Shown: positions 26,124-57,488, counted from the first letter of the stretch. The stretch is DNA of 64,000 nt from Nitrospirota bacterium (GCA_963701855.1 CAVPBK010000001.1:96001-160000); one strand, 5' to 3'. Program-made: numbers and translations. The notes: a model not told the origin generated them from the sequence alone.

Positions 26124-27029
26124 ATGCGAATTCTTTGTGCTGTGGATGGGTCTGAATGTTCACGGTGGGGGGTGCAAGCACTCAAAGCGCTCGCCGACCT
26201 GGAGCCGGAGACTGTGACGCTTCTTCATGTAGTCGATCCTTCGGCCCTCCGAGCGGGCAAAGGCAGGAATCCCGTGGCAGAGAAGCGCGCCCTGGCCGCC
26301 ATGGAGAAGGCCGGTGAAATCCTTCTCCACGAGGCAGAGCGATTGGCTCGTGTCGCCCTCGGACAGGCCACGACCGGCCCCCACACCAAATTTCACACTA
26401 CCTTAGTCCATGGCCCCCTCACCCGTACGATCGTGCGACAGGCGGTGCGGGTGAAGGCCGATCTCATCCTCATCGGGTCCCGCGGGTTGAGCGACATTCG
26501 TGGATTCTTGATGGGAAGCATCTCCCGGCAGATCGCGTCGATTGCTCCCTGTTCAATCCTCGTTGTGAAACAGCCACTCCCGCGACTGACGCGTGTGGTC
26601 CTTGCGGTTGATGACTCAAAGCACTCCCGAGCAGCCGCTCGATTTCTTCGATCCTTCATTCTTCCGGAATCCGCCACGACCACCATCCTCTCCTCGGCCG
26701 AGAGACCGGTGACCGACTTGGCCGTTCGGTACTTATCCAAAACCCAAGTAGCAGAGTTGGAACGACCGGTCCTCGAACGAGCCACGCGACTGGTCACGGC
26801 ATTGCGGGATGAATTTCTCAAAGAAGGCTACGCCGTCGTCACAGACGTGCAGATGGACCACGTCATCGACACCATCGTCAAACAGGTGGAGACGGATCAT
26901 GCTGACCTCCTGGTGATCGGGTCTCGCGACTTGACTAAGAGCGAGCGGCTCTATCTCGGCAGCGTCTCGGAAAGTCTCCTGAGACACGTCCCTTGTTCCA
27001 TCCTGATCGTGCGAGGCCGGCGTGCCTAA
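26124..27029 (+). CDS. Tandem-domain universal stress protein
   Basis: ILCAVDGS, LILIGSRG...GSIS, LLVIGSR...GSVSE. Confidence 0.95.
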   Translation: MRILCAVDGSECSRWGVQALKALADLEPETVTLLHVVDPSALRAGKGRNPVAEKRALAAMEKAGEILLHEAERLARVALGQATTGPHTKFHTTLVHGPLTRTIVRQAVRVKADLILIGSRGLSDIRGFLMGSISRQIASIAPCSILVVKQPLPRLTRVVLAVDDSKHSRAAARFLRSFILPESATTTILSSAERPVTDLAVRYLSKTQVAELERPVLERATRLVTALRDEFLKEGYAVVTDVQMDHVIDTIVKQVETDHADLLVIGSRDLTKSERLYLGSVSESLLRHVPCSILIVRGRRA

Positions 27030-28215
27030 CCTCGACGAGCTACCGCTCCACCAACTCACGGTTGCTGAGATCTTCAAACACCTGGAAACCAGTGAAGGCG
27101 GCTTGTCACCCGAAGAGGCACAGCAGCGGCTCAGTCGGTATGGCCCCAATGTTCTGGAGGAGCCGGGTCACTATTCATTGATTCGAGGGTTCCTCCACCA
27201 GTTCACCCACTTTCTGGCAATTTTGCTCTGGATCGCCACCGCTCTGGCTTTCACCGCAGAATTCATGAAGCCCGGCGAAGGTATGGCCACGCTCGGCTGG
27301 GCAATCCTCGGTGTGATCGTCATCAACGCCGTCTTTGCCTTCTTTCAGGAATATAAAGCGGAGCGCGCGGTGCATGCCCTTCATCGACTCCTTCCTGCCA
27401 GAGCCTGGGTGCTACGAGGCAATCAACCGCATGACGTGTCGCGGAGTGAGATCGTGCCGGGTGACGTGCTCTTGATCGAGGAGGGAGAGCAGGTCCCTGC
27501 CGACGCCCGGCTCATCGAAGCATCCGACATGCGTGTCGACCTCTCCTCTCTCACAGGCAAATCCCAACCGAAGCGGCGGACGGCGGAGCCGGTCATCGAT
27601 GGACATCTCCAGGACATTCCCAATCTCGTATTCGCCGGTACCCCCGTGCTCTCCGGCAGAGGTCGGGCGGTCGTGTTCGCCACCGGCATGCAGACGGAAT
27701 TCGGCAAGATCGCCCGCCTCTCCACGAGCGTGGAGACAGGTCTCAGCCCGCTGCAGAAAGAGATCGCGAAGGTCACCCATGTGGTCGCAATGCTGTCGGT
27801 CGCCATGGGCGGAGTCTTTTTCGTCATCGGCGTCTCCATGGGCTTGGGCTTCTGGATCAGCGCGATCTTCGGGATCGGTATCATCGTGGCGAACGTGCCG
27901 GAAGGACTGCTCCCCACTGTGACGCTGGCCTTGGCGTTGGGCAGCCAGCGCATGGCCGCATTCCGACTGGGCATCTTCACCAATCAGCTGATACTTTGGG
28001 GTCTTGTCACTGAACTCACCCTCCTCGCGTTGATCGTCTACACCCCATTAGGAAATGCCATCTTTGGAACAAGCCCCTTGCCTGCCTGGATCTTCGGGCC
28101 ACTCGCGCTGGGCGCCCTTGTGCTGTTATTCGCAGAGGAAAGTCGCAAGTTCATCGTCAACCGATTCACAAACAATCGCGCAGGCGGAGTCACGCAACAA
28201 GCGGGCACATCATGA
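27022..28215 (+). pseudogene. Cation-transporting P-type ATPase with large in-frame internal deletion
   Basis: N-terminus and VPEGL present; jumps from GSQRMA straight to the C-terminal helices; no DKTGT or GDG motif; TGES reads TGKS. Confidence 0.85.
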
Positions 28216-31737: not shown

Positions 31738-31933
31738 TTAGCCCACATTATTCATGAGGACTTCTGCTGCAATCGCCGATCTGCTGCTACGACGAGCCTC
31801 CGGCTGGCGAGCTCGCCCCCCGGCCCCCCCACATACTGCACGAGTACGCATCGGATCCTTACGGCTCCGCCCGCCGGTCTCGCGACGCGGCTCAGCGATT
31901 TCGCAACGAACCGTCATGAATAATGCGGGCTAG
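31738..31933 (+). mobile_element. Family E MITE-like element
   Basis: TAGCCCACATTATTCATGA ... TCATGAATAATGCGGGCTAG. Confidence 0.8.
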
Positions 31934-32385
31934 GAGCGAAACGGTTTAACATCACCTGACTTGCGCAACATCTTGTTCACCTCGTCAAGGTGCAGTTCTT
32001 CGCCGACGATCATCTCTCGTGCATATTCTTCCAACAGAACGGACTTTCCCTCGGAGATTTTTAGAAGTTCGTAATAGGAGGCGGCGGCGGCCTTCTCGTG
32101 CTCCAAGCTTTCCTGCAGGATATCTCCCACATCATGCTTCTCGGTTTCCAAGAGTGTCCCGATTTTCAGTGACGGGTGGCCGCCGAGTAAGGTGACCAGT
32201 TCCCCTGCTTTATACGCATGGGCAAGGCTTTCGTCAGCATTACTCTTCAGCCAAGACACGATAGGAATGCGGTTATAGCCATAGATCATAAGGGAGTAAT
32301 GCGTATAGCGTACGACTCCCGCCAACTCATGCTCCATTATTTTATTGAGAATACTAACTGCGCGTTTCGTGTCTTGATCGTTCAT
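31930..32385 (-). CDS. Bacterioferritin/ferritin-like protein
   Basis: EHELAGVVRY, ESLAH, EHE, EELH ferroxidase-type ligands. Confidence 0.9.
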   Translation of the reverse strand: MNDQDTKRAVSILNKIMEHELAGVVRYTHYSLMIYGYNRIPIVSWLKSNADESLAHAYKAGELVTLLGGHPSLKIGTLLETEKHDVGDILQESLEHEKAAAASYYELLKISEGKSVLLEEYAREMIVGEELHLDEVNKMLRKSGDVKPFRS

Positions 32386-32741
32386 CTGATGCCTCCTGTT
32401 AGCAACACTATCCCGACTGAAGAAGCTGCGAATGGCATAGCGCCTGGCACGTCTGCTACATCTGGCCTTTGCAGCCCGGCACACCACTGTCAGCGATTCG
32501 TTGGGAGACAAGTCTACTGGAAAGCCCAATGCGTATCTACCTCGTTCTGTTCTTGGTAGTACCCAAGGCATTGGTTACGACCGAGCGGCTGTCCAGCTCC
32601 CATGCAGATCATACGAACGTGTAATGGAATAGCTCTTGTCATTATTTCGTCTCTCCCCTATAGAGAATAGGCAGAGTTGCAAGTTAAACAATCGCCGGCT
32701 TCCGTAACGCCCCCTCACGCGGTTGCATAGGAGTGTCTGCT

Positions 32742-42340: not shown

Positions 42341-42976
42341 CTATTCGAAGAACTTCCTCACCCCCGCCTTAATCTGGTCCAGCCCCTGGCGCAAGTCGGT
42401 TTCAAGCACATCGGCCTTGGCCTGCACCCCCACGCGCTTGGCCTTGAGCTCGTCCTTGAACGACACCAGCTTAGTGAGTAGCTCCTGCTTCTTTGACTCC
42501 AGCGTAACTTGCTGTTTGGCTTTCTCGCTCTCAAAGCGGCCCTTGAGTGCCTCAAACTCGGCTTCGAGGGTGCTCGTCCGGCCCACGAGATCCTCCCAAA
42601 CCTTGCCTGATTCGAACGAAGCCCCTTTCACTTTCTGCTCCGCAACAGATTCGAACTCATTCAGAGCCTTGAGAATCTTTGTCCTCTGCTCCTCGAACGT
42701 GTCGCGGGCGTCCGCCTTGCCGAGGGCCAACTGGACTTGCAAGTGTTCGAGCTTGGCCTGCACGTCAGTCTTTGCCTGCTCTGCCATCTCCTTCGACTTC
42801 TGCACGTCGGACTGGACCTGCTTGAGCAGATCTCGTAGCTGTTGCTTGCGCTGTTCCAGCCGCTGCTGCGCTTGATCTTTCGTCTGGGTCAGTTGCGCTT
42901 CAAACGCCAGCGCCTGATGCTCCAACGCATCCAACTTCTTGTCGAACGATGCTCTGAGTTCCTTGATTCGCGACAT
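42341..42976 (-). CDS. Coiled-coil hypothetical protein
   Basis: K/E/Q/L-rich heptads; HLQVQLALGKADARDTFEEQ; GAGG RBS. Confidence 0.8.
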   Translation of the reverse strand: MSRIKELRASFDKKLDALEHQALAFEAQLTQTKDQAQQRLEQRKQQLRDLLKQVQSDVQKSKEMAEQAKTDVQAKLEHLQVQLALGKADARDTFEEQRTKILKALNEFESVAEQKVKGASFESGKVWEDLVGRTSTLEAEFEALKGRFESEKAKQQVTLESKKQELLTKLVSFKDELKAKRVGVQAKADVLETDLRQGLDQIKAGVRKFFE

Positions 42977-43193
42977 GGGGACCTCCTCTGGGTGAAATGG
43001 AACATATAAACCAGCTGCCTTCTTCTGCCGAGCGTGGCATGATATCGTCGCCAAAAGCAGGGAAGAGAGAGTCATCGCTTGACCTTGCACTGGACTGCCA
43101 GCACGCCATGACAATCCACCTATTCCATCCCTGCATAGCGCAGTATCGCGTCAAGCAATGGTCCCTTTTGCGGCATGAACCCAAGAGCCAGGG

Positions 43194-44477
43194 CTAGGGA
43201 GTCTTTGCACAACGAAACCCATAGCCGAAGTGCCGATTCGTCGGCTGGGCAGCGAACCGGTGCGCGGAACGCAGGAACTCAGGGACATAGAGCCAGGACC
43301 CACCCCGCACCACTTTAGCCTCACCAGTTGTCGGCCCTATTGGGTTCCGCCGCGGGCTGTTCTTATAATAGTCATAGTCATACCAGTCGCTGACCCATTC
43401 CCAGGCATTTCCGGCCATGTCATAGATGCCATAGGGACTCCGGCCTTCTTCGAAAGATCCTACCGGGACCAAGGCCAAATGGTTGTTCCATTCCTTTCTT
43501 CCGTAATTCGCGTGAAGCCGCGTAGGTGCTTCATTACCCCAGGGATAGATGCGTCCATCCGTCCCCCGCGCCGCCTTCTCCCACTCGGCCTCCGTCGGCA
43601 GCCTCTTGCCGGCCCATTTGCAGTACATGACAGCATCCTCCCAATCCACGTTTACAACCGGGCGTTTCTGATGTTGGGATTGATTCATAATATACCAGTC
43701 CGGCGGCTCCTCCATGTCAGTCGCCTCCAGATATTTGGCGTACTGTCCTACCGTCACCTCGTACTTGTCCATATAGAAGGCATTGAGGTAGACGTGATGT
43801 GCGGGACTTTCGTCATCTGCCAGATTACTCCCCATCGTGAATTCCCCTGCCGGCACCAGCGCCATCGGCACCCCTTGCATACCGACCTGCCCTTCCCCTC
43901 CCGTCAATCCGTCTAGTCTCAGCATGCTCGGCGAGGCAGTCGATCGCCGCTGTGAGAGTTTCGCTAGCAATTGTTGGTAGACAACCTGTTGCTCTTCGTT
44001 GAGACCCATCTCGTCGGCAGCGTCCAGAGTGTCCTTCGCCTGCTTCATCCTGTCGGGCGACGCCTTTCCGCCTGTGATCAGATCCTTCGCTTCGTCCAGC
44101 AATCGCCATACCTTCACTTCGTCCAGTAACTGCCACACCTTCGCTTTGCGTAATCGTGGTTTAGCCGATCCGACCACTGCAGATTTGGCATCCAGTTCCA
44201 GCGCGGTCTCGTAATGTTCTTCCGCGCATGCCCAGGCTTTCAAGCCCCGACAGGCCTCAGCCAAGTAGAAATGCGCCTGTGAATTCGACGGATCTTTCTT
44301 CACGCCGGCTTCCAGCTCCATGCGCGCCTCTGTATACTGTTTTTTCTTCAGTAGTTCCACCCATTTGGCAAATTCCTTATCGCCGGTATGGGCGGCCTGA
44401 GCGGTCACAGAGTTAGCGATCATCCCCGACCACATGAAGAGACACAACACGGTAAGTATTCTCACCATCTGCCTCAT
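43194..44477 (-). CDS. Exported TPR plus formylglycine-generating-enzyme (SUMF1) domain protein
   Basis: TPR helices; FTMGS, RLPTEAEWEKAARG, DMAGNAWEW, RGGSW, GFRC. Confidence 0.92.
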   Translation of the reverse strand: MRQMVRILTVLCLFMWSGMIANSVTAQAAHTGDKEFAKWVELLKKKQYTEARMELEAGVKKDPSNSQAHFYLAEACRGLKAWACAEEHYETALELDAKSAVVGSAKPRLRKAKVWQLLDEVKVWRLLDEAKDLITGGKASPDRMKQAKDTLDAADEMGLNEEQQVVYQQLLAKLSQRRSTASPSMLRLDGLTGGEGQVGMQGVPMALVPAGEFTMGSNLADDESPAHHVYLNAFYMDKYEVTVGQYAKYLEATDMEEPPDWYIMNQSQHQKRPVVNVDWEDAVMYCKWAGKRLPTEAEWEKAARGTDGRIYPWGNEAPTRLHANYGRKEWNNHLALVPVGSFEEGRSPYGIYDMAGNAWEWVSDWYDYDYYKNSPRRNPIGPTTGEAKVVRGGSWLYVPEFLRSAHRFAAQPTNRHFGYGFRCAKTP

Positions 44478-44599
44478 GGAAGCTCCTCTCCCAATTGTGA
44501 TTCCTTCGTGGATTCGACCTCGCCTGCTGGCACAGATCACGAGTCACGACAAGCCCGGCGAGCTTACCAGAAAACGAAAACGGTGGTCATGAGCTCAAC

Positions 44600-44990
44600 G
44601 GTTCCCCCTCTTGCGCCCGTCGAGCTACCACTACGATGCTCCCCTCAAGCTTGCTCGTTATCTCTCTCGGGATGGGGGCTGATTGATCTTCCACTGCGCA
44701 CAGCTTTCTCACCCGCCCACCCACTGGCACGCCGAGACGTGCCATTAGCCCGGGCGAGGGCCCTCCAATCCTCTTTACCTCTCTTGAAGGGAGTGGCAAA
44801 GGCTGCCCTTTACAGCGTGCATCGAACGAGCACCGTTTCACTGTGCGCGTTCTGCGAGCAAGAAGGGCACCTGGCCGCTCCATCCCCATCCTTCCGAGGC
44901 CGCGCGTTGCGCGAGCACAAAAGATCATCAGGCTCCATCCCGTATTCTGCTCCGCAAGCAAGGGATCAGCACAGATGTCATTCCACCCAT
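44600..44990 (+). repeat. Nested array of family A core modules
   Basis: Same modules as 41905..42340 in a different nesting order. Confidence 0.85.
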
Positions 44991-45037
44991 TTTTTTCTCC
45001 AGCTAGCCCTGCCGACATCGAGGCCGATCGCATCGCT

Positions 45038-45400
45038 TCACTTGGCGAGGGTCCGCACATAGGTCAGCACGTCTCTGCTCTCTTTCTCCGAGAGGCGGAC
45101 ATCCCAAGGCGGCATGTTCGGTTTGCCGTCATGGATAGTCTTGATCAGGTCGGCATCGGATTTCTTTCTGGTCGATGGTGATGTGAGGTTAGCCGGATCC
45201 GGTCCACGAAGAAACTTGTACCCATCCCCTCCACCCTCCGGCCCGTGGCAACCGGTGCAGTATCTGACAAACAGGATCTTTCCACGCGCCACATCGCCGC
45301 TCCGAGCCCTGGGCTCAGCTTGTCCTAACGCCACAGTCCCGAATAAAAGGCCGCTCACAAGCCCGACTGTTGCCATCTTAAGCATCCAGCTCCGCTTCAT
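45038..45400 (-). CDS. Periplasmic monoheme cytochrome c
   Basis: Signal peptide, CTGCH, MPPW. Confidence 0.92.
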   Translation of the reverse strand: MKRSWMLKMATVGLVSGLLFGTVALGQAEPRARSGDVARGKILFVRYCTGCHGPEGGGDGYKFLRGPDPANLTSPSTRKKSDADLIKTIHDGKPNMPPWDVRLSEKESRDVLTYVRTLAK

Positions 45401-45485
45401 AACATTTCCTTCCGTTCGGTGTGCCCTACCGGCTGCATGCAATCGAAGCCCTGCCTTCGATGTAGCAGATCGAGCCTCCAGACCA

Positions 45486-46050: not shown

Positions 46051-49000
46051 CTACACCCACTCCGGCGCATACTCCTTCCCTGCTTCTTTTTCTGCGAACC
46101 ATCGATACAGGGCCGGCAAGACCACCAACGTGAGTGCCGTCGAGGTAAAGAGGCCGCCGATGACGACGGTTGCGAGCGGCCGCTGGACTTCGGCACCGAT
46201 CCCCTGCGCGAGCGCCAATGGCAGCAGACCCAGCAGCGTCGTCATCATCGTCATGACGACGGGGCGAAGCCGGAGGACGCAACCGCTGACGATAGCCTGG
46301 TCCATCTGCGCGCCTTCGCTGCGCAACTGATTGATATAGGAGACCAGCACGATCCCGTTCCCCACCGCAAGGCCGAATAGTTCGATAAAGCCGATGGAAG
46401 CCGGCAGACTCAGATATTGTCCGCTCAGCCACAGAGACACAACGCCCCCGATCAAGGCGAAGGGGAGATTGATCATGATCAACGTCGCGTAACGGAGCGA
46501 GTGAAACGCCCAGAAGAGCAGAAAAAACACGAGCCCCAGCGTAATAGGCACCACGATTACCAGCCGCTCGTTGGCCCGCTCCATGTTCTCGAACGCTCCG
46601 CCCCACGTCATCTGGTACCCTTCAGGCAGGTGTACCAATGATTCCAGTTTCTGCCGCCCTTCATCCACGACGCTGCCGATGTCGCGCCCGACGACATTGA
46701 AGCCGATGTAGATGCGGCGCTTCACTTGCTCCCGGCTGATGCTGAACGGCCCTTCGCGCATCTCGATCGTGGCGAGTTCGCTCATCGGGATCAGCGCGCC
46801 GGACGCCGACTTCACCCGAATCTCTCCGATGGTGCCGATGCTGTTGCGTTGCAGTTCCGGGAACCGAAGCGTCAATTGAAACCGCCGCTCGCCTTCGTAG
46901 ACATGGGTCACCGCCTTGCCGCCGATCGCGGTGGTCACGATCTCCTGCACGTCGGCCACGTTAATGCCAAAACGGGCGATCTTCTGCCGGTCAATGTCGA
47001 GCGTCAGATAGGGCTGGCCGGCAATCTGCTCGACTTTGATGTCTTTGACGCCGTTGATCAGCTGCATCAAGGCGGCAATCTTCTCCGCCTTGTCGTGCAG
47101 CACATCAAGATCCTCCCCGTACAGCTTAATCGCGCATTCCGCCCTGACGCCGGAGATGAGCTCGTCCACCCGGTGTTGAATCGGCTGGCTCATGAGCACG
47201 GAGATGCCTGGAATCTCCGCCAGTTTTTTCCGGATGGCGTCGGTCAATTGCGGCTGAGTGGTCGCCGTCTTCCATGTGCTCCGATCACTCAGAGACACGA
47301 TTGGCTCGCTCTCGTTCAGTTCCTCCGGCCCTACAGCAATCTCCGGCCTGCCGATCTTGCTCACGGCCATCCGGACTTCTGGAAACTCCAGCATGACCTT
47401 ATGGGCTTGTTTCTCCATCTCTATGGACTCCGGCAGCGAGACGCTCGGCAGCCGAACAATCTTGGGCGTCAGAGTGCCTTCTTCTAGTAGTGGGATGAAC
47501 TCCCGTCCCACAAATGGAACAAGGGCAAGGCTGCAAAGCACGATCGCTGTCGAGCTGCCGAGCACGAGACTGCGATGCCGGAAGGTCCAGGTTAGCACCG
47601 GCACATAGCGCTGTTTCATCCAACCAGCGAGGCGCGTTTCTTCCGGATGGTCTCCACGCAAGATCAATGATGCGAGCACCGGCGACAGGGTCAACGTGAC
47701 TACGACCGAAGCCAAGAGAGCGATCACCAACGTGTAGGCCAGCGGTGCGAACATCTTCCCTTCCATGCCGTGGAGCGTCATCAGCGGCAAAAACACGACA
47801 CTGATGATCAGAATGCTAAACAGGATCGGCCGGCCCACTTCTTTCGTGGCCTGAAGAATCACCTCCGACGTACTCTTCTTCGTTGCGCCATGGTTCTGCG
47901 CCAGGTGCCGATAGACGTTTTCCACCACGACCAGCGATCCGTCCGCAATCTCGCCGATGGCGATGGCGAGTCCGCCGAGCGTCATCAAGTTGGCCGAGAG
48001 CCCCAGCCGCTGCATCACGATGAATGTGATCAGGGGAGTGACGATGAGCGAGACCGTCACCACGACGGCGCTGCGGACGTGGCCCAGAAAGAAAAAGAAG
48101 ACGAAGATCACCAGCACGATCCCTTCAATCAAAGCATCCCGCACCGTATTGATCGCCGCCGTGACCAACTCGGTGCGATCGTAAAAAGGCAGGAGCTTCG
48201 TGCCCGAAGGAAGGATATTGTTCTGCTGGAGATCTTCCACCTTGGTCTTCACCGCTTCGACTACCTGACGAGCATTGCCCCCGCGAATCATGAGCACGGT
48301 GCCAGCCACGACCTCCCGCTCGCCGTTGAGCACCACTGACCCAAGGCGGACGGCGTGGCCGATGCGGACTTCCGCGACATCACGAACGAAGACCGGGGTG
48401 CCGCCGGCCTCTTTCACGATGATGGACTCGATATCGCTCATTGTCTTGATGAGGCCCAGGCTGCGGACGATCGCCCGTTCTGCATGGCGCTCCAGCACAT
48501 TGCCACCGGCATTGGCATTGTTCTTTGCCACCGCGCTGTAAATGTCGTGGAGCGTCAGGTCGAACTTGCGGAGCTTGGCCGGATCGACCAGGACTTGATA
48601 CTGTTTGACGAACCCGCCCATGCCGTTCACATCGATCACGCCGGGCACGCTCTTGAGCAAGGGGCGCAAAACCCAGTCCTGGAGCGTGCGCTGATCCATC
48701 AACTCCGTCTCGATGATCTTGGGGTCGGTCTCCGCCGCATTCGGCCCTTCCACATAATATTGATAGACCTCGCCCAGCCCGGTACTCACAGGGGCCATGA
48801 CAGGCTCCAGCCCATCGGGCAATCGCTCCTTCGCCGCCATGATCCGTTCGAGAACCAACTGGCGGGCGAAGTAGATATCGACGTCGTCGTTGAACACGAC
48901 CGTGATCTGGGAGAGGGCGAATTTTGAAAGGGATCGGATCTCCGCTAAACCTGGCAGGCCGGTCATCTGGAGTTCGAGCGGATAGGTGATGAATCGTTCG

Positions 49001-49182
49001 ACTTCGACCGGTGAGAGACCGGGCGCGTCGGTCAGCACCTGCACCTGGATGTTCGTTACGTCGGGATACGCATCGATCGGGATAGACTGAAAGGCGAAGA
49101 CACCGGCGACGGACAACAGGCAGGCCAGGCCCAGAACCAGTATCCGCTGTCGCAGCGAAAATTCCAGAAGAGAGGCGATCAT
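46051..49182 (-). CDS. czcA: CzcA/CusA heavy-metal RND efflux permease
   Basis: PIDAYPDVT, GLGEVY, GLAIAIG..ADGS, LRLRPVVMT. Confidence 0.95.
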   Translation of the reverse strand: MIASLLEFSLRQRILVLGLACLLSVAGVFAFQSIPIDAYPDVTNIQVQVLTDAPGLSPVEVERFITYPLELQMTGLPGLAEIRSLSKFALSQITVVFNDDVDIYFARQLVLERIMAAKERLPDGLEPVMAPVSTGLGEVYQYYVEGPNAAETDPKIIETELMDQRTLQDWVLRPLLKSVPGVIDVNGMGGFVKQYQVLVDPAKLRKFDLTLHDIYSAVAKNNANAGGNVLERHAERAIVRSLGLIKTMSDIESIIVKEAGGTPVFVRDVAEVRIGHAVRLGSVVLNGEREVVAGTVLMIRGGNARQVVEAVKTKVEDLQQNNILPSGTKLLPFYDRTELVTAAINTVRDALIEGIVLVIFVFFFFLGHVRSAVVVTVSLIVTPLITFIVMQRLGLSANLMTLGGLAIAIGEIADGSLVVVENVYRHLAQNHGATKKSTSEVILQATKEVGRPILFSILIISVVFLPLMTLHGMEGKMFAPLAYTLVIALLASVVVTLTLSPVLASLILRGDHPEETRLAGWMKQRYVPVLTWTFRHRSLVLGSSTAIVLCSLALVPFVGREFIPLLEEGTLTPKIVRLPSVSLPESIEMEKQAHKVMLEFPEVRMAVSKIGRPEIAVGPEELNESEPIVSLSDRSTWKTATTQPQLTDAIRKKLAEIPGISVLMSQPIQHRVDELISGVRAECAIKLYGEDLDVLHDKAEKIAALMQLINGVKDIKVEQIAGQPYLTLDIDRQKIARFGINVADVQEIVTTAIGGKAVTHVYEGERRFQLTLRFPELQRNSIGTIGEIRVKSASGALIPMSELATIEMREGPFSISREQVKRRIYIGFNVVGRDIGSVVDEGRQKLESLVHLPEGYQMTWGGAFENMERANERLVIVVPITLGLVFFLLFWAFHSLRYATLIMINLPFALIGGVVSLWLSGQYLSLPASIGFIELFGLAVGNGIVLVSYINQLRSEGAQMDQAIVSGCVLRLRPVVMTMMTTLLGLLPLALAQGIGAEVQRPLATVVIGGLFTSTALTLVVLPALYRWFAEKEAGKEYAPEWV

Positions 49183-50375
49183 AGCGTCGGCTCGATCTTG
49201 TGGCGTTCCATCTCAGACTTGAGGACGAACGATCCCTTGGTCACAACCTGCTCGCCGGCGCTCACCCCCTCCAACACCGTTACTACCTCTCCCTGCTCGC
49301 TTCCCACCTTGACCATTCGCGCTTCGAAGTCATTCGTTCCCCGTTGAACAAATACCATCGTACCGGTTGGCCCGCTTTGGACTGCCTCGAGCGGCACAGT
49401 CAGGGCGTCCGGAGTCGGCGACGCATAGACGAGGACGGTGGCAAACATTTCCGGTTTCAGCAGCCGATCGGGATTCAGCACCGTCACCCGCAGGCGCATC
49501 GTACGGGTGGCCGGATCGAGCACATCCCCGATGTAGGTGATCGTTCCCGGAACGATGGCATGGGGATAGGCGAACACAATCACATTGACCTTCAGGTCCT
49601 TCCGGATGAACTCCACGTCCTTCTCCGGCACGTTGCCGACGACCCACACATCCGAAAGATCCGCGACGGTGAAGAGCTTCTGCTGCGTCTCGACCACCTC
49701 GCCCCTCGTGATTTTGCGCGTGATGACCCGGCCGTCGAAAGGCGCCCGTAGGGACACATCCGCCTTGATCGTATCCTCGCGATCCAGCCGTTCGACTTCC
49801 TGCCGGGGGACGCCGAGCAGTTCCAGACGGTTCCGCGCCTCGCGGGCTTCGGCTTGTGCCGTTTTCATCGTGGCCTCGCGGCGTTGCAACTCGGCCAGAC
49901 TCACAACCTTTTGTTCATACAGGTCCCTGGCACGCTCGTACGCCAGTTTCGCTTCGTGCAATTTTGCAGCAGATTTCAGATATGCCCCCTCCGCCACACC
50001 GAGGTCCGTACTGTGGAGCAACGCCAGCAAGGCGTCTTTCTTTACGTCTTGGCCGACATCCACATAGACCTTCACCACTCGGCCCCTGATGAGCGTGGTC
50101 ACCTCAGCCAGTTCATTTTCGTTGGCTTGAACTGTGGCGGGAAATTCCCGAGGTACCAGCAACTGGCCTCGGACAACCGGCGCGACCTCGATCACCGTCC
50201 GCGCGAGTTCTTCGGCTGTGAGATGGACAACTCCTGGCTTGTCGGCCACAACAGTCTTCTTAGCCTCACGCGCTTGATCGGGAGTTCTCTCGCAGGCAAT
50301 AAGCCCGGCGAACGCTAAGGCAACGAGGATAACGACTCTACGTCGATCGTGAAACGTGAAACGCTTCATGGTCAT
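49179..50375 (-). CDS. czcB: CzcB-like RND periplasmic adaptor
   Basis: APFDG, ADLSDVWV, LKPEMF, VVTKGSFVLKSE; overlaps czcA. Confidence 0.9.
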   Translation of the reverse strand: MTMKRFTFHDRRRVVILVALAFAGLIACERTPDQAREAKKTVVADKPGVVHLTAEELARTVIEVAPVVRGQLLVPREFPATVQANENELAEVTTLIRGRVVKVYVDVGQDVKKDALLALLHSTDLGVAEGAYLKSAAKLHEAKLAYERARDLYEQKVVSLAELQRREATMKTAQAEAREARNRLELLGVPRQEVERLDREDTIKADVSLRAPFDGRVITRKITRGEVVETQQKLFTVADLSDVWVVGNVPEKDVEFIRKDLKVNVIVFAYPHAIVPGTITYIGDVLDPATRTMRLRVTVLNPDRLLKPEMFATVLVYASPTPDALTVPLEAVQSGPTGTMVFVQRGTNDFEARMVKVGSEQGEVVTVLEGVSAGEQVVTKGSFVLKSEMERHKIEPTL

Positions 50376-50411: not shown

Positions 50412-50736
50412 CGAAAAGCTCTCGATTTTACGGAAGAAATGGTCGGTCTAGATGCCTTTTGCCACGTTTCCGATGGAGGACCGTGGTGAAATGCGACAGT
50501 AGGGATTGCGGAGGCGAAGAACCGACAGGAGCGGTTACCACGTGAATGGAATGACCTTCGTGCTAGTTGTGATTTTTCACGAATGATCCCGACAAGGGAA
50601 CCGGGACAACGTGAATAAGACACCATCGTCCTTTAAGGGGACTGCCCGGCGTTGTTGTTCGTAGCGAGGCGAAGGAAGTGCGGCCAAACATGACCCCACT
50701 GGCATTCCAACCCTATTGTCTTCTGGAGATCTCTAA

Positions 50737-51078
50737 TCAAAACCCGTCGAGGGGCACTTTCTTCTTCGCTGCGTATTCGTCGTCGGTGATCAACCCGTCA
50801 TTGTGAATCTGCTTGAGTCGTTTCAGTTTTCCTTCGAGAGAAGAATCTGGATAAGCGGAAGGAGGCGATCCTTTTTCCTGTCCACCGTCTATCCGAGGAG
50901 CGTTCGATAAGAGCTGTTGATAGGCAAGGGCTAACTGTGGCGCCTCAGGGATCAGGAAAGTCCCAAGCCCGTTGTCCTCGTGAGGCAGGCGCTGATATGG
51001 CTCATAGAGAGCTCCGGCGATCATGCGCGGCGGATCCTGCCACATCAGCTCGCGGATGCTCGACATCGCATTGTGAGT
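50737..51078 (-). pseudogene. 3' remnant of a SHOCT-domain lipoprotein gene
   Basis: IRELMWQDP...LKRLKQIHNDGLITDDEY aligns by eye to the C-terminal half of 51593..52534. Confidence 0.65.
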
Positions 51079-51079
51079 G

Positions 51080-51430
51080 TTACTTGCCAAGACTCCGTAT
51101 GTAGGCGAGCACGTTCTGTATATCCTGCCCGTTGAGCCGGCTTTTCCACGCAGGCATTGTGCCGTGACCTTCACGAATCACTGTCCGCAGATCCGTATCC
51201 GATTTGCCCCTCACTTGTGGACCAGTCAAATCTGCCGGTGGCGGCCTGAGTGCTTCGCCCATGACTCCGTCTCCCTTTCCACCCTCTCCATGACACACCA
51301 CACAATTGATCGCATACAGTATTTTTCCTTTTGTGGAATCTCCGCTCTCGGCCGATGTCACTTGGGCGCCCACTCCTCCCGTAAATAAGCAGGATGCGGA
51401 AAACAGAACGAGAAGTTTCAAGCCATTCAC
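51080..51430 (-). CDS. Periplasmic monoheme cytochrome c
   Basis: Signal peptide, CVVCH, MPAW. Confidence 0.92.
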   Translation of the reverse strand: MNGLKLLVLFSASCLFTGGVGAQVTSAESGDSTKGKILYAINCVVCHGEGGKGDGVMGEALRPPPADLTGPQVRGKSDTDLRTVIREGHGTMPAWKSRLNGQDIQNVLAYIRSLGK

Positions 51431-51592
51431 CTAGTCACCTCTTTCTTTGTTTAAACCGTGGCCGAAATCGTGATCATCAGTTATTTTAAAGGGCCGTGGT
51501 GACGCAAGCCGCGTTCCATTCGCTTCCGTTGCGTCAGTATGAGTGACAGAGGGGAGCTTCATTTGGATGCGCCGGATTTGTCCAGTGGGCAT

Positions 51593-52534
51593 TTAGAGGC
51601 GCTCCAACAGCTGGTTTCTTTTATTGCGATACTCTTCCTCTGTGATCAAGCCCTGATCACGGAGTCGTTTCAAGACTTTCAACCGTTCTTCCATTGAGGG
51701 CTGATTGGTTTGCGCTTGAGGAAGACGTGAAGCACTGAAGCCATCTGGTAGTGCGGCCTTGGAGAGGGGCTCAGCCAGTAGAAGCGGTTGATAGGAGATC
51801 GAGATTTCATTGACTGGGGCACTCAGCACCCCGACTTCCTTATGTTGGATCACCGTCTGATGGTCACCGGGGACCAACTCATACAAATTGACCTGGCTCG
51901 AGAGCGGATTCTCCCAAACCAGCTCACGGATGTTCGGCGCAGTCACGGCATATCGATAGTTGGCCAGGAGCAGATGGAGGTGCGACCCTTCCATAAACCA
52001 CCCGCCGGAGGTGATCTCGGAGACGTCCGGTGCGCCAGGCCGGCTCAGTCCAAAGACCACCCACTCTGTTGGTTGTGCCTGGGCGAAGGCGAGGCTTAAG
52101 GTCCGGCTCAGGTAGTCGACTTCATCCTGCGTTAATGCATCATTGATTAGCCCCTTGGGCAATGAAAACAAGACGACCGGCTCACCCTGTCTTTGAACAC
52201 GAAGACTGCTCAGGATGATTTTCCATTCCTCGGGACTGAGCGTGAACGGATGAGAAAAGTTCGGTACGCGGTCTCGGCGTAATCCCGGGGACGGTCCTTG
52301 TAGCCGGACGAACCGATCCTCTCCCTCACACTCTCCGCAGACCATGCGACAATTTTCACAGGCCAAGCGAGGCGGGTGTGCCGGCCCAGCACAACCCTGA
52401 AGCAGGCCGGCGATTAGACCTCCGGTGAGCATTGCCACGACCACGCAGGCGCTTGTCGCACGTCGAACTCGCGCATAGCCGTGCGACGCGCTGACCTGAT
52501 GATCTTCCTGGAATTCTCGTTTGTGGGCTGTCAC
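51593..52534 (-). CDS. SHOCT-domain lipoprotein
   Basis: Lipobox LQGC, CENC/CGEC, C-terminal ERLKVLKRLRDQGLITEEEY. Confidence 0.8.
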   Translation of the reverse strand: MTAHKREFQEDHQVSASHGYARVRRATSACVVVAMLTGGLIAGLLQGCAGPAHPPRLACENCRMVCGECEGEDRFVRLQGPSPGLRRDRVPNFSHPFTLSPEEWKIILSSLRVQRQGEPVVLFSLPKGLINDALTQDEVDYLSRTLSLAFAQAQPTEWVVFGLSRPGAPDVSEITSGGWFMEGSHLHLLLANYRYAVTAPNIRELVWENPLSSQVNLYELVPGDHQTVIQHKEVGVLSAPVNEISISYQPLLLAEPLSKAALPDGFSASRLPQAQTNQPSMEERLKVLKRLRDQGLITEEEYRNKRNQLLERL

Positions 52535-52667
52535 GTGATTCGTTCAGACTCCTGATTTACGCGATGATGTCTTGCCGCTCTTGCTCTGTCAACCGGTGCC
52601 TGACAGAGGGACGGTGGTGAGAGGAAGAGAGGAGGTAACACCCACACCGGTGAGTCGGCTGAGCCGT

Positions 52668-53183
52668 CTAGTCACGAAGCGGCTCATCGAGATCTCCGAC
52701 CGTCAGACGATCTGGAGGCCATCGGTAGGCGCCCCTTACAGCGGAGGCAACCATCGCATAGCCAGGTGGTTCTTTTCTGACAAATTGACCGAGGAGGTCT
52801 GGTGTCGGGTTTCCATCGATCAGATAGACCACGCCCTTTTCATAACCCGTGGTCGGTGACGGGGCTGGAATGCCGACCGTGGCCAGCGCATGACTGGCCC
52901 GGGCCTTCTTCAACGCAGACAGGTAGGTGCGCACCTGCTCGGGAGTCCATCCTCCGTGATTGGTGACCACGACTGAGGCGTCTCCGATGACCATCACATC
53001 AATCATTGGCATGGGGGCATGCGTCGCCGCGCTGAACGCAGGCGGTGGTGCAGGCTCCGGCCTTCCCCACTCCATGAAGACTCGGATCATGGCGAAGACA
53101 ATGAGCACGACGGCACCTCCGAGCAGTACCTGCCGACCGGACAGACGGTGGACCGGAACGGACTGCTCGGGTCGGGATGGCAT
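52668..53183 (-). CDS. Hypothetical membrane-anchored protein
   Basis: Single TM helix; co-oriented within the operon. Confidence 0.6.
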   Translation of the reverse strand: MPSRPEQSVPVHRLSGRQVLLGGAVVLIVFAMIRVFMEWGRPEPAPPPAFSAATHAPMPMIDVMVIGDASVVVTNHGGWTPEQVRTYLSALKKARASHALATVGIPAPSPTTGYEKGVVYLIDGNPTPDLLGQFVRKEPPGYAMVASAVRGAYRWPPDRLTVGDLDEPLRD

Positions 53184-53307
53184 GGGACCCTTTCCTGGCA
53201 CAGATGAGCGCGCGAATCTTAGCACAGAGCTCAGCGAATTTCCTCGCTGGGCTCCCCTCCCTCAAGATATATCGACACCGGAGGAGGGAGCTGTGTGCCT
53301 GTCGAAA

Positions 53308-54771
53308 CTAGTACGCGAAGTCCAAGCCAACCAACATGGTCTGACCGAGCAGATCCCCGCCTCCTGTGCCGACCCCTTTGGTCCTGTAGGTGTTGTACTC
53401 AGCGTGTAGGGCCAGATCCGTCCGCGTGGATTGGTGAAGGAAGTACCGAACCAGAAACGTTTGGGAGTCAACATTGTTATAGTTGTGGTTAAAGGTGGGA
53501 TCCCCCTGCCGATCGTTGCGGATGATGTCGTACCGATAGGCGAAGAACCAATCGGGCACGTTCAGGAACGGAAGGAGCGTGGGATAGTAATCCAGCTCGA
53601 CAAAGCCGCCGTTCCACGAAGCGTTCTGGGCACCGGCGATGCCTTGAGAGACGAAGAGGTTCTTGCTGCTGTTGCCATGCACGAAGGCACCAAAGAGATT
53701 CCATTCTCCATTAAACGTGGTACTCAGATCCACGCCAATGTTGCTAAAGGGCTGGCCGCTTCCGCCCACAGCTTGACACGTGGGGCAAGTCGCGTTCACC
53801 GTGGTCGGGGCGTCCCCATAGACCCCGAAGAGGCCAATTCGATGGCCGGTCACGATGCCATATCCCCCGAAGGATTGCGTGACATGGCCGTAGAAATTGA
53901 CCCCACGTCCACCCGTACACGACTGGCCGGCCGGACAACCGCTCAACGGACCAGAAAACGTATTGGTTGACATTGCCGTGAAGCTGTAGCGGAAAAATCC
54001 ACTGGTGGGCGCGGTTTTCATCAGGCCCGCGAGTTCCGCTCCCGGTTGATTATCCCCGAGCCCAAACGAGTTGGGATTGGCGTAGGTGCTGGTGGATGTC
54101 CCGCTGATCGTGGCTGTATACGGTGTCCCCGGCGTGTAGTGGTACATGACAAATGGGGTGTTGAGCGTCGGACTGCGTTTTTCGCTGAACGGCAAATCCA
54201 ATTCGAATTTGCCTATACGGAAGTTCATGAGATAGTCGCCGGGCTTGCTCGTGATGCCCAGATATTTTTCCAGCCTCATGAGCCGAACGAAGGAGCTTTC
54301 CAAATCGCTGTCGCTGGCGCCGGTCCCAAATCCCGCGCTACCCAAGCCTGGCGTATACACGATGCCGAACGCCACATCGCGAGTCAATGTGCCGAAACTT
54401 AAAATATCGAGGCCGGTGAAGCCGAACCCACCCGTGCTGATCCCGCTGCCATCGGTACGGACACTAGCCGCCTGATAGCCGATGGTGGTCCGGAACGACA
54501 CGGGCCAAAAGCCCATGGTGATCCCTTCGTACGTGGGCATGTCCGCATCGGAGCCCATTTGATAGCCCCGATCCCGGAAGAGGTTGCCGAAGTCGTTCAA
54601 CTTTGGAAATCCAGGGACGTGGCAGACGTTGCACTTCATGTCGTATTTCCTCGCGAAGGCCGGAATGGCTTCCGCCTCAGGCGCACGATAGGTGAATTCA
54701 TGCAAGACGAGGACAATCAATACCAGCACGAGAAACGGAGCCCCTACGACGAATATCTCCCTATAGCGCAT
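53308..54771 (-). CDS. Cyc2-like fused monoheme cytochrome c / outer-membrane beta-barrel
   Basis: AIPAFARKY..KCNVCH...PKLNDFGNLFRDRGY matches the Cyc2 N-terminal motif; amphipathic beta-strands; terminal GLDFAY. Confidence 0.8.
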   Translation of the reverse strand: MRYREIFVVGAPFLVLVLIVLVLHEFTYRAPEAEAIPAFARKYDMKCNVCHVPGFPKLNDFGNLFRDRGYQMGSDADMPTYEGITMGFWPVSFRTTIGYQAASVRTDGSGISTGGFGFTGLDILSFGTLTRDVAFGIVYTPGLGSAGFGTGASDSDLESSFVRLMRLEKYLGITSKPGDYLMNFRIGKFELDLPFSEKRSPTLNTPFVMYHYTPGTPYTATISGTSTSTYANPNSFGLGDNQPGAELAGLMKTAPTSGFFRYSFTAMSTNTFSGPLSGCPAGQSCTGGRGVNFYGHVTQSFGGYGIVTGHRIGLFGVYGDAPTTVNATCPTCQAVGGSGQPFSNIGVDLSTTFNGEWNLFGAFVHGNSSKNLFVSQGIAGAQNASWNGGFVELDYYPTLLPFLNVPDWFFAYRYDIIRNDRQGDPTFNHNYNNVDSQTFLVRYFLHQSTRTDLALHAEYNTYRTKGVGTGGGDLLGQTMLVGLDFAY

Positions 54772-54942
54772 AATCAACCTCCACGGTCGGATTGAAAGGT
54801 GCGATACGGTGACAACGTGACGTGGCACCAGGGGGCGAGCCTCGACCTCCAGCCTCCCCAATGCGGGATCGGTTCACCTCATCCTTCTCTTGTCCGGCTC
54901 GCCGTTGATGCGTGGTATCCATGTATCTCCTCAGGACAGGCC

Positions 54943-55785
54943 CTACTCCATCGTGACAGGACGGACGGGAAATTCAAATCGTGTGTCCACCGTTTCTTTC
55001 GGTTTGACGTCCACTTTCTGTCGAACAATATGCGGGTCGTCGTAGACCGCTCGGGAGGAGTCTATTTTCTTGATCTTGTATCCCTCATGCCAGGCCACGA
55101 GGGTATAGGTGCCTGGCGGTACGCCATGAATCTCAAACTTTCCAGCGGCATCGGTGATCGCAAAATATGGATGATCAAATCCGGCGATATAGCCAGACAT
55201 GTGGGTATGGACGTCGCACTGATAAGGCAACCCGACCCCAAGACCTCGAAGGAGAGTGTGATCAACCTCCCGGTTCGGAGTGGGCATAGCCACATTAAAA
55301 ATGCTGCCGCGGTTGGCAGTGAAGAAATGCGGATTGTGGAGAATTGGGTCGAAATTAATTATTGCGACGAGCTGTGTCCGGACAAACGCAAGGATATGTT
55401 CCTTGAATTGGCATAGCTGCGTGTCTGGTTCTTTGCCGGTCTGGTCCTGTCCCATATGGAGCCAATATTTCTCTTCAAGCGCTTTCCCCTTTTCGACCTG
55501 CTCCAGATACACCAGAACGTGCTGGAGCCCTTTGCTCTTTGGATCCACCTTCAACACCGGGGATGGTGCCGTTTCACCGCATGTATCCAGATCCGCCTTG
55601 ACCGGGAGCGGGGGAATCGTCGGAATCTCGCCTTCCCAGGTCGCCACGCCTTTGATCGTCCCGCCGTTCGAGACGTTAATAACCTCATACTCGGCAAAGG
55701 CGGCCTCCGAACCACCTGCCAACACGAGCAGACTGATCGCTAGTATACATGACCAATCCGTAATTCGAGTTTTGATCCGTGTCAT
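54943..55785 (-). CDS. Exported cupredoxin-like / carboxypeptidase-regulatory-like domain protein
   Basis: Signal peptide; LHNPH ... QCDVHTHM; HPYFAITD..GKFEI.GVPPGTY. Confidence 0.8.
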   Translation of the reverse strand: MTRIKTRITDWSCILAISLLVLAGGSEAAFAEYEVINVSNGGTIKGVATWEGEIPTIPPLPVKADLDTCGETAPSPVLKVDPKSKGLQHVLVYLEQVEKGKALEEKYWLHMGQDQTGKEPDTQLCQFKEHILAFVRTQLVAIINFDPILHNPHFFTANRGSIFNVAMPTPNREVDHTLLRGLGVGLPYQCDVHTHMSGYIAGFDHPYFAITDAAGKFEIHGVPPGTYTLVAWHEGYKIKKIDSSRAVYDDPHIVRQKVDVKPKETVDTRFEFPVRPVTME

Positions 55786-55965
55786 CGCGCCTCCTTTTGC
55801 GTGAGGTTGTAACCACACTCGATTCGTCCACGAATCTCTTCCGCCAGAGACCCTTCTGGTGTCGGGCTCTCTTCATCTCTTCAGTTTGGAGTGTGAGCAC
55901 CATACTCAAATCTGCTCATCATGTTGGAGCGCAGAGACCCTAGCGGCAGTAAAGAAGTTCTGCAA

Positions 55966-56003
55966 CTAGGGAATCCTCTAGTCTTAATCGTAGAAATTAC
56001 TAG
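55966..56003 (-). promoter_or_regulatory. Composite operator copy 4, followed by TTGCAG-17-TAGGGT
   Basis: Minus strand CTAGTAAtttctacgattaagaCTAGAggattcCCTAG. Confidence 0.7.
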
Positions 56004-57002
56004 TGAACCTCTCCGCATTTCATAGACACCTTCTCCCGGGCTTGAACGCTGCCCACTTGTTTTTCAAATACTCCAACTAAAGAAGTTCGTCAATTCAAAC
56101 CTAAGTAGCAGTACGTGCATTTTACATTCCTGATAATCGCCAGATTTCATGGGAGACGACCTCTCAGGCAGCCCACGTAATTCTTGGATTAGGAAAGTAC
56201 ACTTCGCCTTCGGTAATCCCTCAGAGATGGAGCTTTTGCCACAAATGCAATTTTCATTTTTCCCAAAGAAGCGACAGCTATATTCTGAACTACTCAGGCA
56301 GATAGGCTGAAGGCTTTTAGGGTCGGGCTTCTTGCCCAACAAGGACTCATCTCTGCTTGAACCAAAGGTCGTAGGAAACCGAGAAGGTTTTGAATGGCTT
56401 GGTTCGCTGCCTTGGGAGATTATGTATAGCCTTCCGCCTGAATACCTGAGCAGGTACGCCTGCTTGTCGATTTCCCTAATGCCTGTTAAACGTTGTATCT
56501 TCTCGCATGCCTACAGTGTGAGAGTCTTGCGATCATACACAATGCTTACGATGACTCTCTCTTATCTGACAGACCCCACGCAGAAATCTCCTCCCTCCTG
56601 GCGCGGCAAGTTCCCAATCAAACCCGCATTGTTCATGACAGTCCCTGGCGAAAGCGACTAAGAGTGCGTTCCTCATTATTATTTATTATTCGCGCGTGAC
56701 TTGCGCGAAAAGCGCGGCGGGGGAGGTGGTCTGAAGGCTGAAGTGTTCGGAACTCCGACCTTCAGCCTTTGCACCACACCTGTCTCGTGGCATAACGGGG
56801 CATCGGGTGCGGAGACATTGCCCCATAATGCCACGAGGAATGATCCGGGCTTTACGATTCTCTACCACGCTGCGCGCTAACCCCTCTGTTCCTCACAGGT
56901 TTGCATGATCACCCCAAAAGGCATTCATGGCATTTCCCTTGCTAACTTACTCTTCATAAGAATTATGCATATTTTCTTCTCCATTCAGTAAGGGAGGTTG
57001 CC

Positions 57003-57488
57003 ATGCCGGTGTTGAAACGACTCCAGAGTTATCTCGACGCGAACAAGATTCCCCATGAAGTGGTAAACCACCCAAAGGCCTATACCGCCCACGACGTGGC
57101 CCATACACTTGATGTGCCGGGAAAACTTGTCGCTAAAGTCGTCGTGGTGAAGGCCGATCAGTACTTCGTGATGACGGTGCTCCCCTCAACCTGGCGCGTA
57201 GATTTGAAACGATTGCGGGATGTACTGGAGGCCCGTGACATCCGATTAGCAACAGAAGCCGAGTGCGCGAATCTGTTCCCCGATTGCCAAGTGGGAACAA
57301 TGCCACCGTTCGGAAATCTCTACGGCGTGGAGGTGTACGTCGATCAACTGCTGACAGAAGACGAGTCCATCGTGTTTGAAGCAGGGACCTATGTCGGCGC
57401 GATCAAGCTACGGTACAAGGACTTTGCCGATCTCGTTCGCCCGAAAGTCGCCGCGTTTCATCACGAGCCGTCGAAGATCGAGAGCTAG
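57003..57488 (+). CDS. YbaK/EbsC-family aminoacyl-tRNA deacylase-like protein
   Basis: AKVVVVK, LATE.E...FPDC.VG.MPPFG. Confidence 0.92.
   Translation: MPVLKRLQSYLDANKIPHEVVNHPKAYTAHDVAHTLDVPGKLVAKVVVVKADQYFVMTVLPSTWRVDLKRLRDVLEARDIRLATEAECANLFPDCQVGTMPPFGNLYGVEVYVDQLLTEDESIVFEAGTYVGAIKLRYKDFADLVRPKVAAFHHEPSKIES

Follow-up and report, generated by a model that had tools for sequence, protein, structure and literature searches.

A Cyc2-type gene cluster as a putative electron conduit

The stretch of DNA analysed in this study (hereafter the window) is a 64,000-nucleotide (nt) segment of the genome of a Nitrospirota bacterium (GCA_963701855.1, CAVPBK010000001.1:96001-160000), and all coordinates given below without a contig or locus name are positions within it. 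Between positions 51080 and 55785 it carries a gene cluster that we are inclined to interpret as an electron conduit across the cell envelope, built around an outer-membrane protein of the Cyc2 type. Among the genetic markers for iron oxidation by microbes Cyc2 is the principal one, and we know of neither an assigned function nor periplasmic partners for cluster 3, the largest and most divergent branch of the family.

All genes of the cluster lie on the minus strand and are separated by intergenic gaps of 13-171 nt. In the order of transcription they encode an exported two-domain protein (P280), the Cyc2-type cytochrome-porin, a small membrane protein (orf185), a SHOCT lipoprotein, a cytochrome c and a SHOCT-containing gene remnant. 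The features listed in a preliminary description of the locus (the motifs of Cyc2 itself, the pairs CPAGQSC and CPTC, H...C-x2-H-x2-M, a Cys-rich lipoprotein and a cytochrome c) were all recovered on the minus strand, within the coordinates given there; orf185 and the SHOCT remnant are two genes absent from that description.

Identification of the Cyc2-type cytochrome-porin

The text of Keffer et al. (2021; PMC8406198), in the part used here, defines Cyc2 by a signal peptide, a single CxxCH that is preceded by AxPxFAR[Q/K][T/Y] and has PxL four residues downstream, a minimum length of 365 amino acids (aa), and a 16-strand porin resembling OprO/OprP. The gene at 53308..54771 (minus strand) encodes a fused monohaem cytochrome-porin of 487 aa; its open reading frame (ORF) runs from a TTG over 53308-54861, and the start adopted is the internal ATG used by homologues. 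The protein reads ...EAIPAFARKYDMKCNVCHVPGFPKLNDFGNLFRDRGYQMG..., contains CPAGQSC and CPTC, and ends LDFAY. Its signal peptide (MRYREIFVVGAPFLVLVLIVLVLHEF...APEAEA/IP) is evident both from the sequence and from the structural model, in which residues 3-27 form a hydrophobic helix. CNVCH (residues 47-51) is the sole CxxCH, and C47, C50 and H51 are invariant across 46 aligned sequences. AIPAFARKY occupies residues 35-43, and PKL (56-58) comes after H51-VPGF. Three residues lie between Y43 and C47, where the cited text, by its own way of counting, places the motif '5 amino acids upstream'. When all 4.3 Mb of the genome are translated in six frames, this gene is the single place with the pattern FA[RK][KQ][YTF]-x(1-8)-CxxCH, and the genome carries only one Cyc2 gene.

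The protein belongs to no family in Pfam or NCBIfam and has no sequence relative in the PDB. An AlphaFold2 model based on the 46-sequence alignment has a predicted local distance difference test score (pLDDT) of 87.1, a predicted template modelling score (pTM) of 0.84 and 16 strands between residues 92 and 486. With this model as the query, the best Foldseek match was OprP (2o4v, 9.5e-11), followed by OprO (4rjx, 4rjw), among 236 matches at E<=0.001. The preliminary description had claimed a Cyc2-like beta-barrel, to be abandoned if no barrel was predicted; as a 16-strand barrel is predicted with confidence, the claim stands. Judged by the published sequence and fold criteria testable here, the membership of the 487-aa protein in the Cyc2 family is supported. 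In the model the monohaem c domain at its N-terminus is placed where the barrel opens to the periplasm.

Among 8000 candidates scored, 740 proteins are homologous to this Cyc2 at E<=0.001. The best 120 of them are 60-100% identical to it, and nearly all of those that bear a name are assigned to Nitrospira, Nitrospiraceae or Nitrospirota. In a library clustered at 50%, 1319 representatives reach E<=0.001; of these, 221 remain at E<=1e-10 and 54 at E<=1e-30. The query has matches in 39 of the 101 genomes of its bacterial family (32 of the 68 high-quality ones). The two extra Cys pairs, CPAGQSC and CPTC, lie in loops 269-290 and 322-339 and are kept only in the close Nitrospira-type homologues (alignment A3), not family-wide. 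Judging only by the Nitrospira and Nitrospiraceae names of the closest homologues, the host is a probable nitrifier.

The same signal peptide, CxxCH, motifs and barrel are found in the Cyc2 of Mariprofundus ferrooxydans PV-1 (cluster 1) and Acidithiobacillus ferrooxidans (cluster 2) and in Leptospirillum Cyt572 (cluster 3). The protein described here differs from them in that its function is proposed by analogy, and in the two extra Cys pairs that it shares with its close homologues in long loops. That Nitrospira-type genomes can carry Cyc2 homologues is already in print: homologues were noted in Nitrospirales (PMC9040806), Leptospirillum Cyt572 was placed in a dense cluster with Acidobacteria and Nitrospira homologues (PMC10654088), and cluster 3 cyc2 was reported in six of seven Nitrospira metagenome-assembled genomes (MAGs) from sand filters, a finding that concerns those MAGs and not this protein (bioRxiv 10.1101/2024.12.25.630300); each of these statements comes from a portion of the respective text.

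A candidate two-domain cupredoxin encoded upstream of Cyc2

The first gene of the cluster (54943..55785, minus strand), whose start is defined by AAGGAGG and the ATG after it at 55785, encodes P280, a 280-aa exported protein with the signal peptide ...GGSEAAFA/EYEV. Sequence comparisons lead us to place P280 among the relatives of the cupredoxins, with a predicted type 1 copper site like that of amicyanin. The copper domain is joined to a CarboxypepD_reg-like sandwich, the first strand of which apparently precedes it in the sequence.

P280 contains LHNPH...QCDVHTHM, i.e. H...C-x2-H-x2-M. H150, N151, C190, H193 and M196, as well as C69 and C125, are among the residues invariant in 36 sequences with identities down to 23%; a first ligand His followed by Asn is typical of cupredoxins. 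A family profile (A4) compared with the PDB matched amicyanin (1sfd, E = 1.3e-5; 1aac, 4.3e-5) and the type 1 copper protein 5fc9 (5.9e-5). The amicyanin match spans residues 20-104 of 105 with all four copper ligands aligned, PHNVHF and CTPHPFMRG of amicyanin falling opposite HNIHP and CNVHPWMxG of the P280 family. No cupredoxin was found in a search with the single P280 sequence, nor in the PDB with a profile restricted to Nitrospira (A1); the relationship became visible after distant homologues from related loci had been added to the alignment. Among the homologous ORFs beside cyc2 relatives, 49 of 50 contain C-x2-H-x2-M, the exception being a truncated ORF, and two of six distant members gave sub-threshold matches to Cupredoxin_1 (E = 0.025 and 0.041) or Copper-bind (E = 0.072). 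Both the invariant ligands and the amicyanin profile match thus bear out the cupredoxin-like protein that had been proposed at this place. In Pfam P280 itself yielded only a CarboxypepD_reg/fn3_3 piece (residues 207-243), and its look-alikes in the ESM Atlas form clusters from Planctomycetota and Nitrospinota.

Amicyanin is the type 1 copper protein of methylamine oxidation. P280 shares with it (1aac, 1sfd) the His-Asn pair and Cys-x2-His-x2-Met, but the E-value is only 1.3e-5 and there is no Pfam cupredoxin call; moreover, P280 is extended at the N-terminus by a segment that contains an invariant Cys pair, it carries a second domain, and its context is Cyc2, not methylamine dehydrogenase. Nor is P280 a relative of AcoP or rusticyanin. 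The AcoP ligand loop is C159-x6-H166-x4-M171 (PMC4059628, in the portion consulted), compared with C-x2-H-x2-M and the fused CarboxypepD_reg-like sandwich here, which points to a different cupredoxin in the same position.

Further P280 paralogues with C-x2-H-x2-M are located in the genome at C9:221802-222614, C9:443263-443991, C4:373621-376514, C13:868-2179 and C6:1525710-1526528, the C6 copy carrying in-frame stops (4 TGA, 1 TAA). None of these other paralogues lies near a Cyc2, and one of those on contig C9 is 53% identical to P280. PF00127 was not found in the genome to which the window belongs. A Cyc2 100% identical to that of the window is on record, and the best non-self match of P280 is 81% identical with an identical N-terminus. 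In locus L025 Cyc2 is 90% identical to that of the window and P280 only 75%. The cupredoxin gene may be mosaic or may recombine with its paralogues.

A lipoprotein predicted to dock on the haem face of Cyc2

The Cys-rich lipoprotein that had been noticed downstream of the porin is present at 51593..52534 (minus strand). It consists of 313 aa with the lipobox LLQGC48 and the motif CENCRMVCGEC, and in 29 sequences C66-x2-C69 is invariant and H95 and H187 are nearly so. A SHOCT domain (PF09851) at residues 283-310 scores 35.4 bits against a cut-off of 27; the domain of about 200 aa outside it has no family in Pfam or NCBIfam and no PDB relative by sequence. Its ESM Atlas look-alikes are unnamed Nitrospirota clusters.

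As the lipoprotein is the constant neighbour of Cyc2 in Nitrospira-type loci and belongs to no known family, complex prediction was aimed at it. For Cyc2, the lipoprotein and haem together the score was 0.72 (runs 0.69, 0.74 and 0.72), compared with 0.00 for the best of three controls. This mark is reached by 116 of 157 solved complexes and by 2 of 215 mismatched pairs, a calibration that is rough in the present case, with its own alignments and haem included. The runs share at least 77% of their contacts, and the pLDDT of the partner is at least 74. On Cyc2 the predicted contacts involve residues 43-76 around the CxxCH and, on the barrel, residues 177-178, 307-308, 355-356, 398-399, 406 and 448-450; on the lipoprotein they involve residues 115, 118, 168-171, 195-205 and 214-217. 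Recall of a solved complex is unlikely, because neither protein has a PDB sequence relative. The model supports binding, and the Nitrospira-specific lipoprotein is predicted to dock on the haem face of Cyc2.

This arrangement resembles the MtoAB/MtrAB and porin-cytochrome complex (PCC) systems, in which an outer-membrane barrel and a separately encoded, periplasm-facing partner jointly carry electrons through the outer membrane. It differs from them in that the haem is fused to the barrel, while the predicted partner lacks a haem motif and offers just a CxxC and two His that are nearly invariant. This protein would also be set apart from known Cyc2 by a dedicated lipoprotein partner, for which none is mentioned in the portion of PMC8406198 consulted. 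We found no report pairing Cyc2 with SHOCT in the open literature, which was the scope of all our literature searches (subscription papers and closed supplements lie outside it).

Cytochrome c and the gene neighbourhood in related loci

The gene at 51080..51430 (minus strand) encodes a periplasmic class I monohaem cytochrome c of 116 aa with CVVCH, which matches PF13442 (54.3 bits, cut-off 27) and PF00034 (41.5 bits, above its cut-off), so that the cytochrome c suggested in the preliminary description is real. It is about 30% identical to the cytochrome c genes beside distant cyc2 relatives.

To compare neighbourhoods we used the best 80 of 586 confirmed related loci, counting neighbours within 5 kb by tblastn; the taxon labels of MAGs among them may be wrong. 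In the 45 loci whose Cyc2 is less than 40% identical to that of the window, the cupredoxin occurs 39 times, a cytochrome c found with a dihaem query 42 times, coxB 30 times and coxA 29 times, and the lipoprotein is absent. The picture is the same for the 36 of these loci with at least 3 kb on both sides (cupredoxin 34, cytochrome c 35, coxB 27, coxA 26, lipoprotein 0). The labels in this group include Acidobacteriota, Gemmatimonadota, 'delta proteobacteria', Eisenbacteria, Limnocylindria and others, and the usual gene order is cyc2, dihaem cytochrome c, P280-type cupredoxin, coxB, coxA. The 25 loci at 58% identity or above (Nitrospira-type) contain the cupredoxin in 10 cases, the cytochrome c in 15 and the lipoprotein in 18, with neither coxB nor coxA; the 10 loci at 40-58% contain the cupredoxin once, the cytochrome c five times, the lipoprotein twice and no cox genes. 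The lipoprotein is thus the constant Cyc2 neighbour of the Nitrospira-type loci (18/25). In L032, a MAG labelled N. defluvii, the genes for the cupredoxin, Cyc2 and the lipoprotein follow one another. Across 100 related genomes, a manual cross-tabulation placed 22 of the 29 strongest lipoprotein matches (E<=1.2e-25) within about 3 kb of a Cyc2-like match on the same contig, and among 11 loci from genomes of relatives the lipoprotein was found in 10, a full cupredoxin in 4, a broken cupredoxin in 1 and the cytochrome c in 2. The tallies over Nitrospiraceae genomes given here for the lipoprotein and P280 include the unpublished genomes G006, G053 and G076.

The distant cyc2-cox clusters are found at loci L061-L104 (e.g. 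L065:5953-11638 and L098:5812-8956), with labels that include Gemmatimonadales and Myxococcaceae. The rus operon has the gene order cyc2, cyc1, cup/acoP, coxBACD, rus. By sequence and gene order, the distant loci resemble a rus-operon-like respiratory cluster in soil phyla, with Cyc2, dihaem cytochrome c, cupredoxin, coxB and coxA recurring in this order. In A. ferrooxidans cyc2 and cyc1 are the first two genes of the operon (PMC10654088, in the section consulted). On the other hand, the cluster in the window contains a monohaem, not a dihaem, cytochrome c and no cox genes, and thus differs from a rus-type operon. Taken together, these comparisons support a linkage of the cupredoxin, cytochrome c and Cyc2 families across phyla, often with cox genes, a pattern that would fit a rus-like electron chain.

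The same comparisons bear on the idea that the genes are neighbours without a shared function, i.e. that a Cyc2-like haem porin serves solute uptake or haem/iron acquisition and that the carriers serve a general pool. The cupredoxin family is indeed ubiquitous and multi-copy in Nitrospiraceae, contig C1 contains 13 tblastn matches to the 116-aa cytochrome c, and gene order varies among the Nitrospira-type loci. However, several phyla share the grouping of the three families, even at identities of about 30%, the trio recurs around other Cyc2 paralogues of Nitrospiraceae (e.g. G018:C11, G068:C486 and G035:C116), and the complex prediction for the lipoprotein passed its controls, and we regard a chance neighbourhood as improbable. 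The segment of contig C1 between 111 and 197 kb is rich in cytochromes c, with matches at window positions 15446-15832 and 45038-45442 and most of the 13 just beyond the right end of the window.

A second explanation is suggested by the genes downstream of the cluster. A CzcB-like adaptor of heavy-metal resistance-nodulation-division (RND) efflux (49179..50375, minus strand; TIGR01730) and a CusA/CzcA-family RND pump (46051..49182, minus strand; TIGR00914, 1153.9 bits against a cut-off of 701.45) follow directly on the same strand, and the adjacency is also seen in L025 and L054. The cluster might accordingly take part in metal homeostasis together with the CusA/CzcA-type pump, oxidising or sensing toxic Fe2+, Cu+ or Mn2+, which would then be precipitated outside the cell or exported. 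A ferritin-like gene (31930-32571) and a cation P-type ATPase fragment (27022-28215) in the window point in the same direction, and periplasmic cupredoxins and CxxC proteins are common in copper handling. However, CzcA matches within 5 kb were detected in only 3 of the 25 Nitrospira-type and 2 of the 45 distant loci, and it is respiratory genes that are widely kept as neighbours (of the 45 distant loci, 42 have a dihaem cytochrome c and 30 have coxB). Besides, the junction with czcB looks secondary, because a gene remnant and a gap of 361 nt lie in between. We consider a role in metal homeostasis unlikely, if still worth keeping in mind.

Proposed function of the cluster

By analogy with characterised Cyc2 and in view of the conserved gene neighbourhood, which together are our guide to substrate, direction and activity, we suggest that a reduced metal ion in solution, with Fe2+ as the likeliest candidate and Mn2+ as a possible one, would be oxidised at the haem of Cyc2, with the lipoprotein presumably docked on the haem face. 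The electron would then be passed to soluble periplasmic carriers, that is the amicyanin-like type 1 copper protein and the class I cytochrome c, and would join a high-potential cytochrome c pool feeding a terminal oxidase encoded elsewhere in the genome. The module may thus represent an auxiliary electron-donor branch, or an Fe(II)-detoxifying one, of the respiratory chain of a nitrite oxidiser.

A flow in the opposite direction can also be imagined, in which periplasmic electrons pass via Cyc2 to an extracellular acceptor, for instance Mn(IV) or Fe(III), under low oxygen. In principle a monohaem conduit can work in both directions, and the Nitrospira-type loci hold the carriers with cox genes in none of the 25. 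On the other hand, all characterised Cyc2 proteins are Fe2+ oxidases, and a monohaem inside a narrow porin is predicted to meet dissolved ions only (both PMC8406198, in the portion consulted); moreover, the distant relatives are wired to cox genes. An outward conduit seems to us very improbable.

Several observations weigh against an inward electron conduit as assembled here. No Pfam cupredoxin family scored above its gathering threshold in any of the 34 Nitrospira-type P280 members. The AlphaFold2 model of P280 has a pLDDT of 67.1 overall and below 50 at residues 132-154 and 180-202, around the ligands, and the 50 Foldseek matches listed for it include no cupredoxin, only the CarboxypepD_reg/transthyretin-like part being matched. 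The P280 family is not dedicated to Cyc2, because it is multi-copy and occurs in 100 of 101 Nitrospiraceae genomes (with 9 matches in this one), compared with 39 of 101 for the Cyc2 query. In the lipoprotein, conservation at the predicted interface does not exceed that of the remaining residues (mean 0.53 compared with 0.51, a value reached by 3850 of 10000 random sets). In the Nitrospira-type loci the cupredoxin lies within 5 kb in only 10 of 25 cases and cox genes in 0 of 25, and the locus counts as a whole overstate independence, the loci being kin and best-match picks. The adjacent CzcBA pump points equally well to metal handling. Finally, no connection of Nitrospira Cyc2 with the oxidation of iron or manganese could be established by phylogeny (bioRxiv 10.1101/2024.12.25.630300), and the function of cluster 3 has been called 'most uncertain' (PMC8406198), both as stated in the portions of text consulted.

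The electron conduit nevertheless remains the interpretation that we prefer. A more far-reaching version of it, which we put forward tentatively as possible but doubtful, is that the Nitrospira-type Cyc2 is one half of a two-protein outer-membrane complex, in which the CxxC/His lipoprotein would cap the haem on the periplasmic side of the barrel and gate electrons, or relay them, to two-domain cupredoxins of a class not recognised before. Dissolved Fe(II) or Mn(II) could then be respired by nitrite oxidisers and also, where cox genes are attached, by many Acidobacteriota and Gemmatimonadota of soils.

As regards novelty, the identities of the partners and their cross-phylum linkage to cox genes were not found in the literature searched. 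No paper among those listed joined Cyc2 to both a cupredoxin and a carboxypeptidase-regulatory domain, and, as judged by titles and the beginnings of abstracts, none dealt with an Acidobacteriota gene cluster of Cyc2 and cytochrome c oxidase. Queries combining Cyc2 with Acidobacteri*, aa3 and plastocyanin gave nothing relevant, and in the supplements of PMC7029218 only community tables matched for Nitrospira entries or accessions of close homologues. Three concrete candidate partners can now be named. One is a copper protein whose four ligands do not vary between phyla; the others are a small cytochrome c and the lipoprotein, which is predicted to rest on the haem. Many uncultured bacteria of soils have the same parts linked to a terminal oxidase. 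A Cyc2 homologue of obscure role thereby becomes a defined set of proteins for expression and assay, and should the chain prove active, metal oxidation would have to be expected in more organisms than at present.

Upstream region and regulation

The preliminary description had placed the electron chain under the control of a new operator. The Cyc2 criteria, the cupredoxin, the cytochrome c and the cross-phylum linkage would fit such a chain; the operator is not supported. The divergent intergenic region upstream of the cluster (55786..57002, 1.2 kb) contains no recognised element: a search of 50500-57200 against Rfam was negative at E<=1, promoter and terminator scans yielded no more than expected from shuffled sequence, and no promoter-like site was seen in 55786-57002. 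The region is essentially unalignable with that of the closest relative, L025, whose coding genes are 75-92% identical at the protein level. The only inverted repeats are two adjacent ones at 56726-56837, with arms of 18-19 nt that are 83-89% complementary and spacers of 16 nt, and these lie about 940-1050 bp from P280 and about 170-280 bp upstream of a divergent gene with a tRNA_edit domain, that is, beside the latter.

Remaining genes of the cluster and downstream region

The gene orf185 (52668..53225, minus strand), located between the Cyc2 and lipoprotein genes, encodes 185 aa with one predicted membrane helix and has no family in Pfam or NCBIfam. Among 91 comparison loci it was seen, apart from the window, only in L025. 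The mismatches between the two versions are distributed over the codon positions as 15/15/43, as expected for coding sequence, so that we regard orf185 as a real coding gene and reject the possibility that it is non-coding. It represents a lineage-specific insert.

The last gene of the cluster (50737..51066, minus strand) is a 109-aa SHOCT ORF (27.2 bits), probably the C-terminal remnant of a second lipoprotein paralogue. Aligned with the full-length lipoproteins of L033, L036 and L054, it shows 78%, 75% and 70% identity, respectively, to their C-terminal part, and it lacks the N-terminal ~170 residues of full-length paralogues. In L054 a full-length lipoprotein paralogue gene directly precedes czcBA. 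The ORF thus has the look of something left over from an earlier cyc2-lipoprotein cassette, since replaced here. A longer version of it (50737-51174) was rejected as a full gene, since 95 nt of it are shared with the cytochrome c gene and its alignment to full-length paralogues is confined to their C-terminal third.

Downstream of czcA, the same strand (42341-45442) encodes a class I cytochrome c (45038-45442), an FGE-sulfatase/TPR protein (43194-44540) and two ORFs of 157 and 257 aa without a family.

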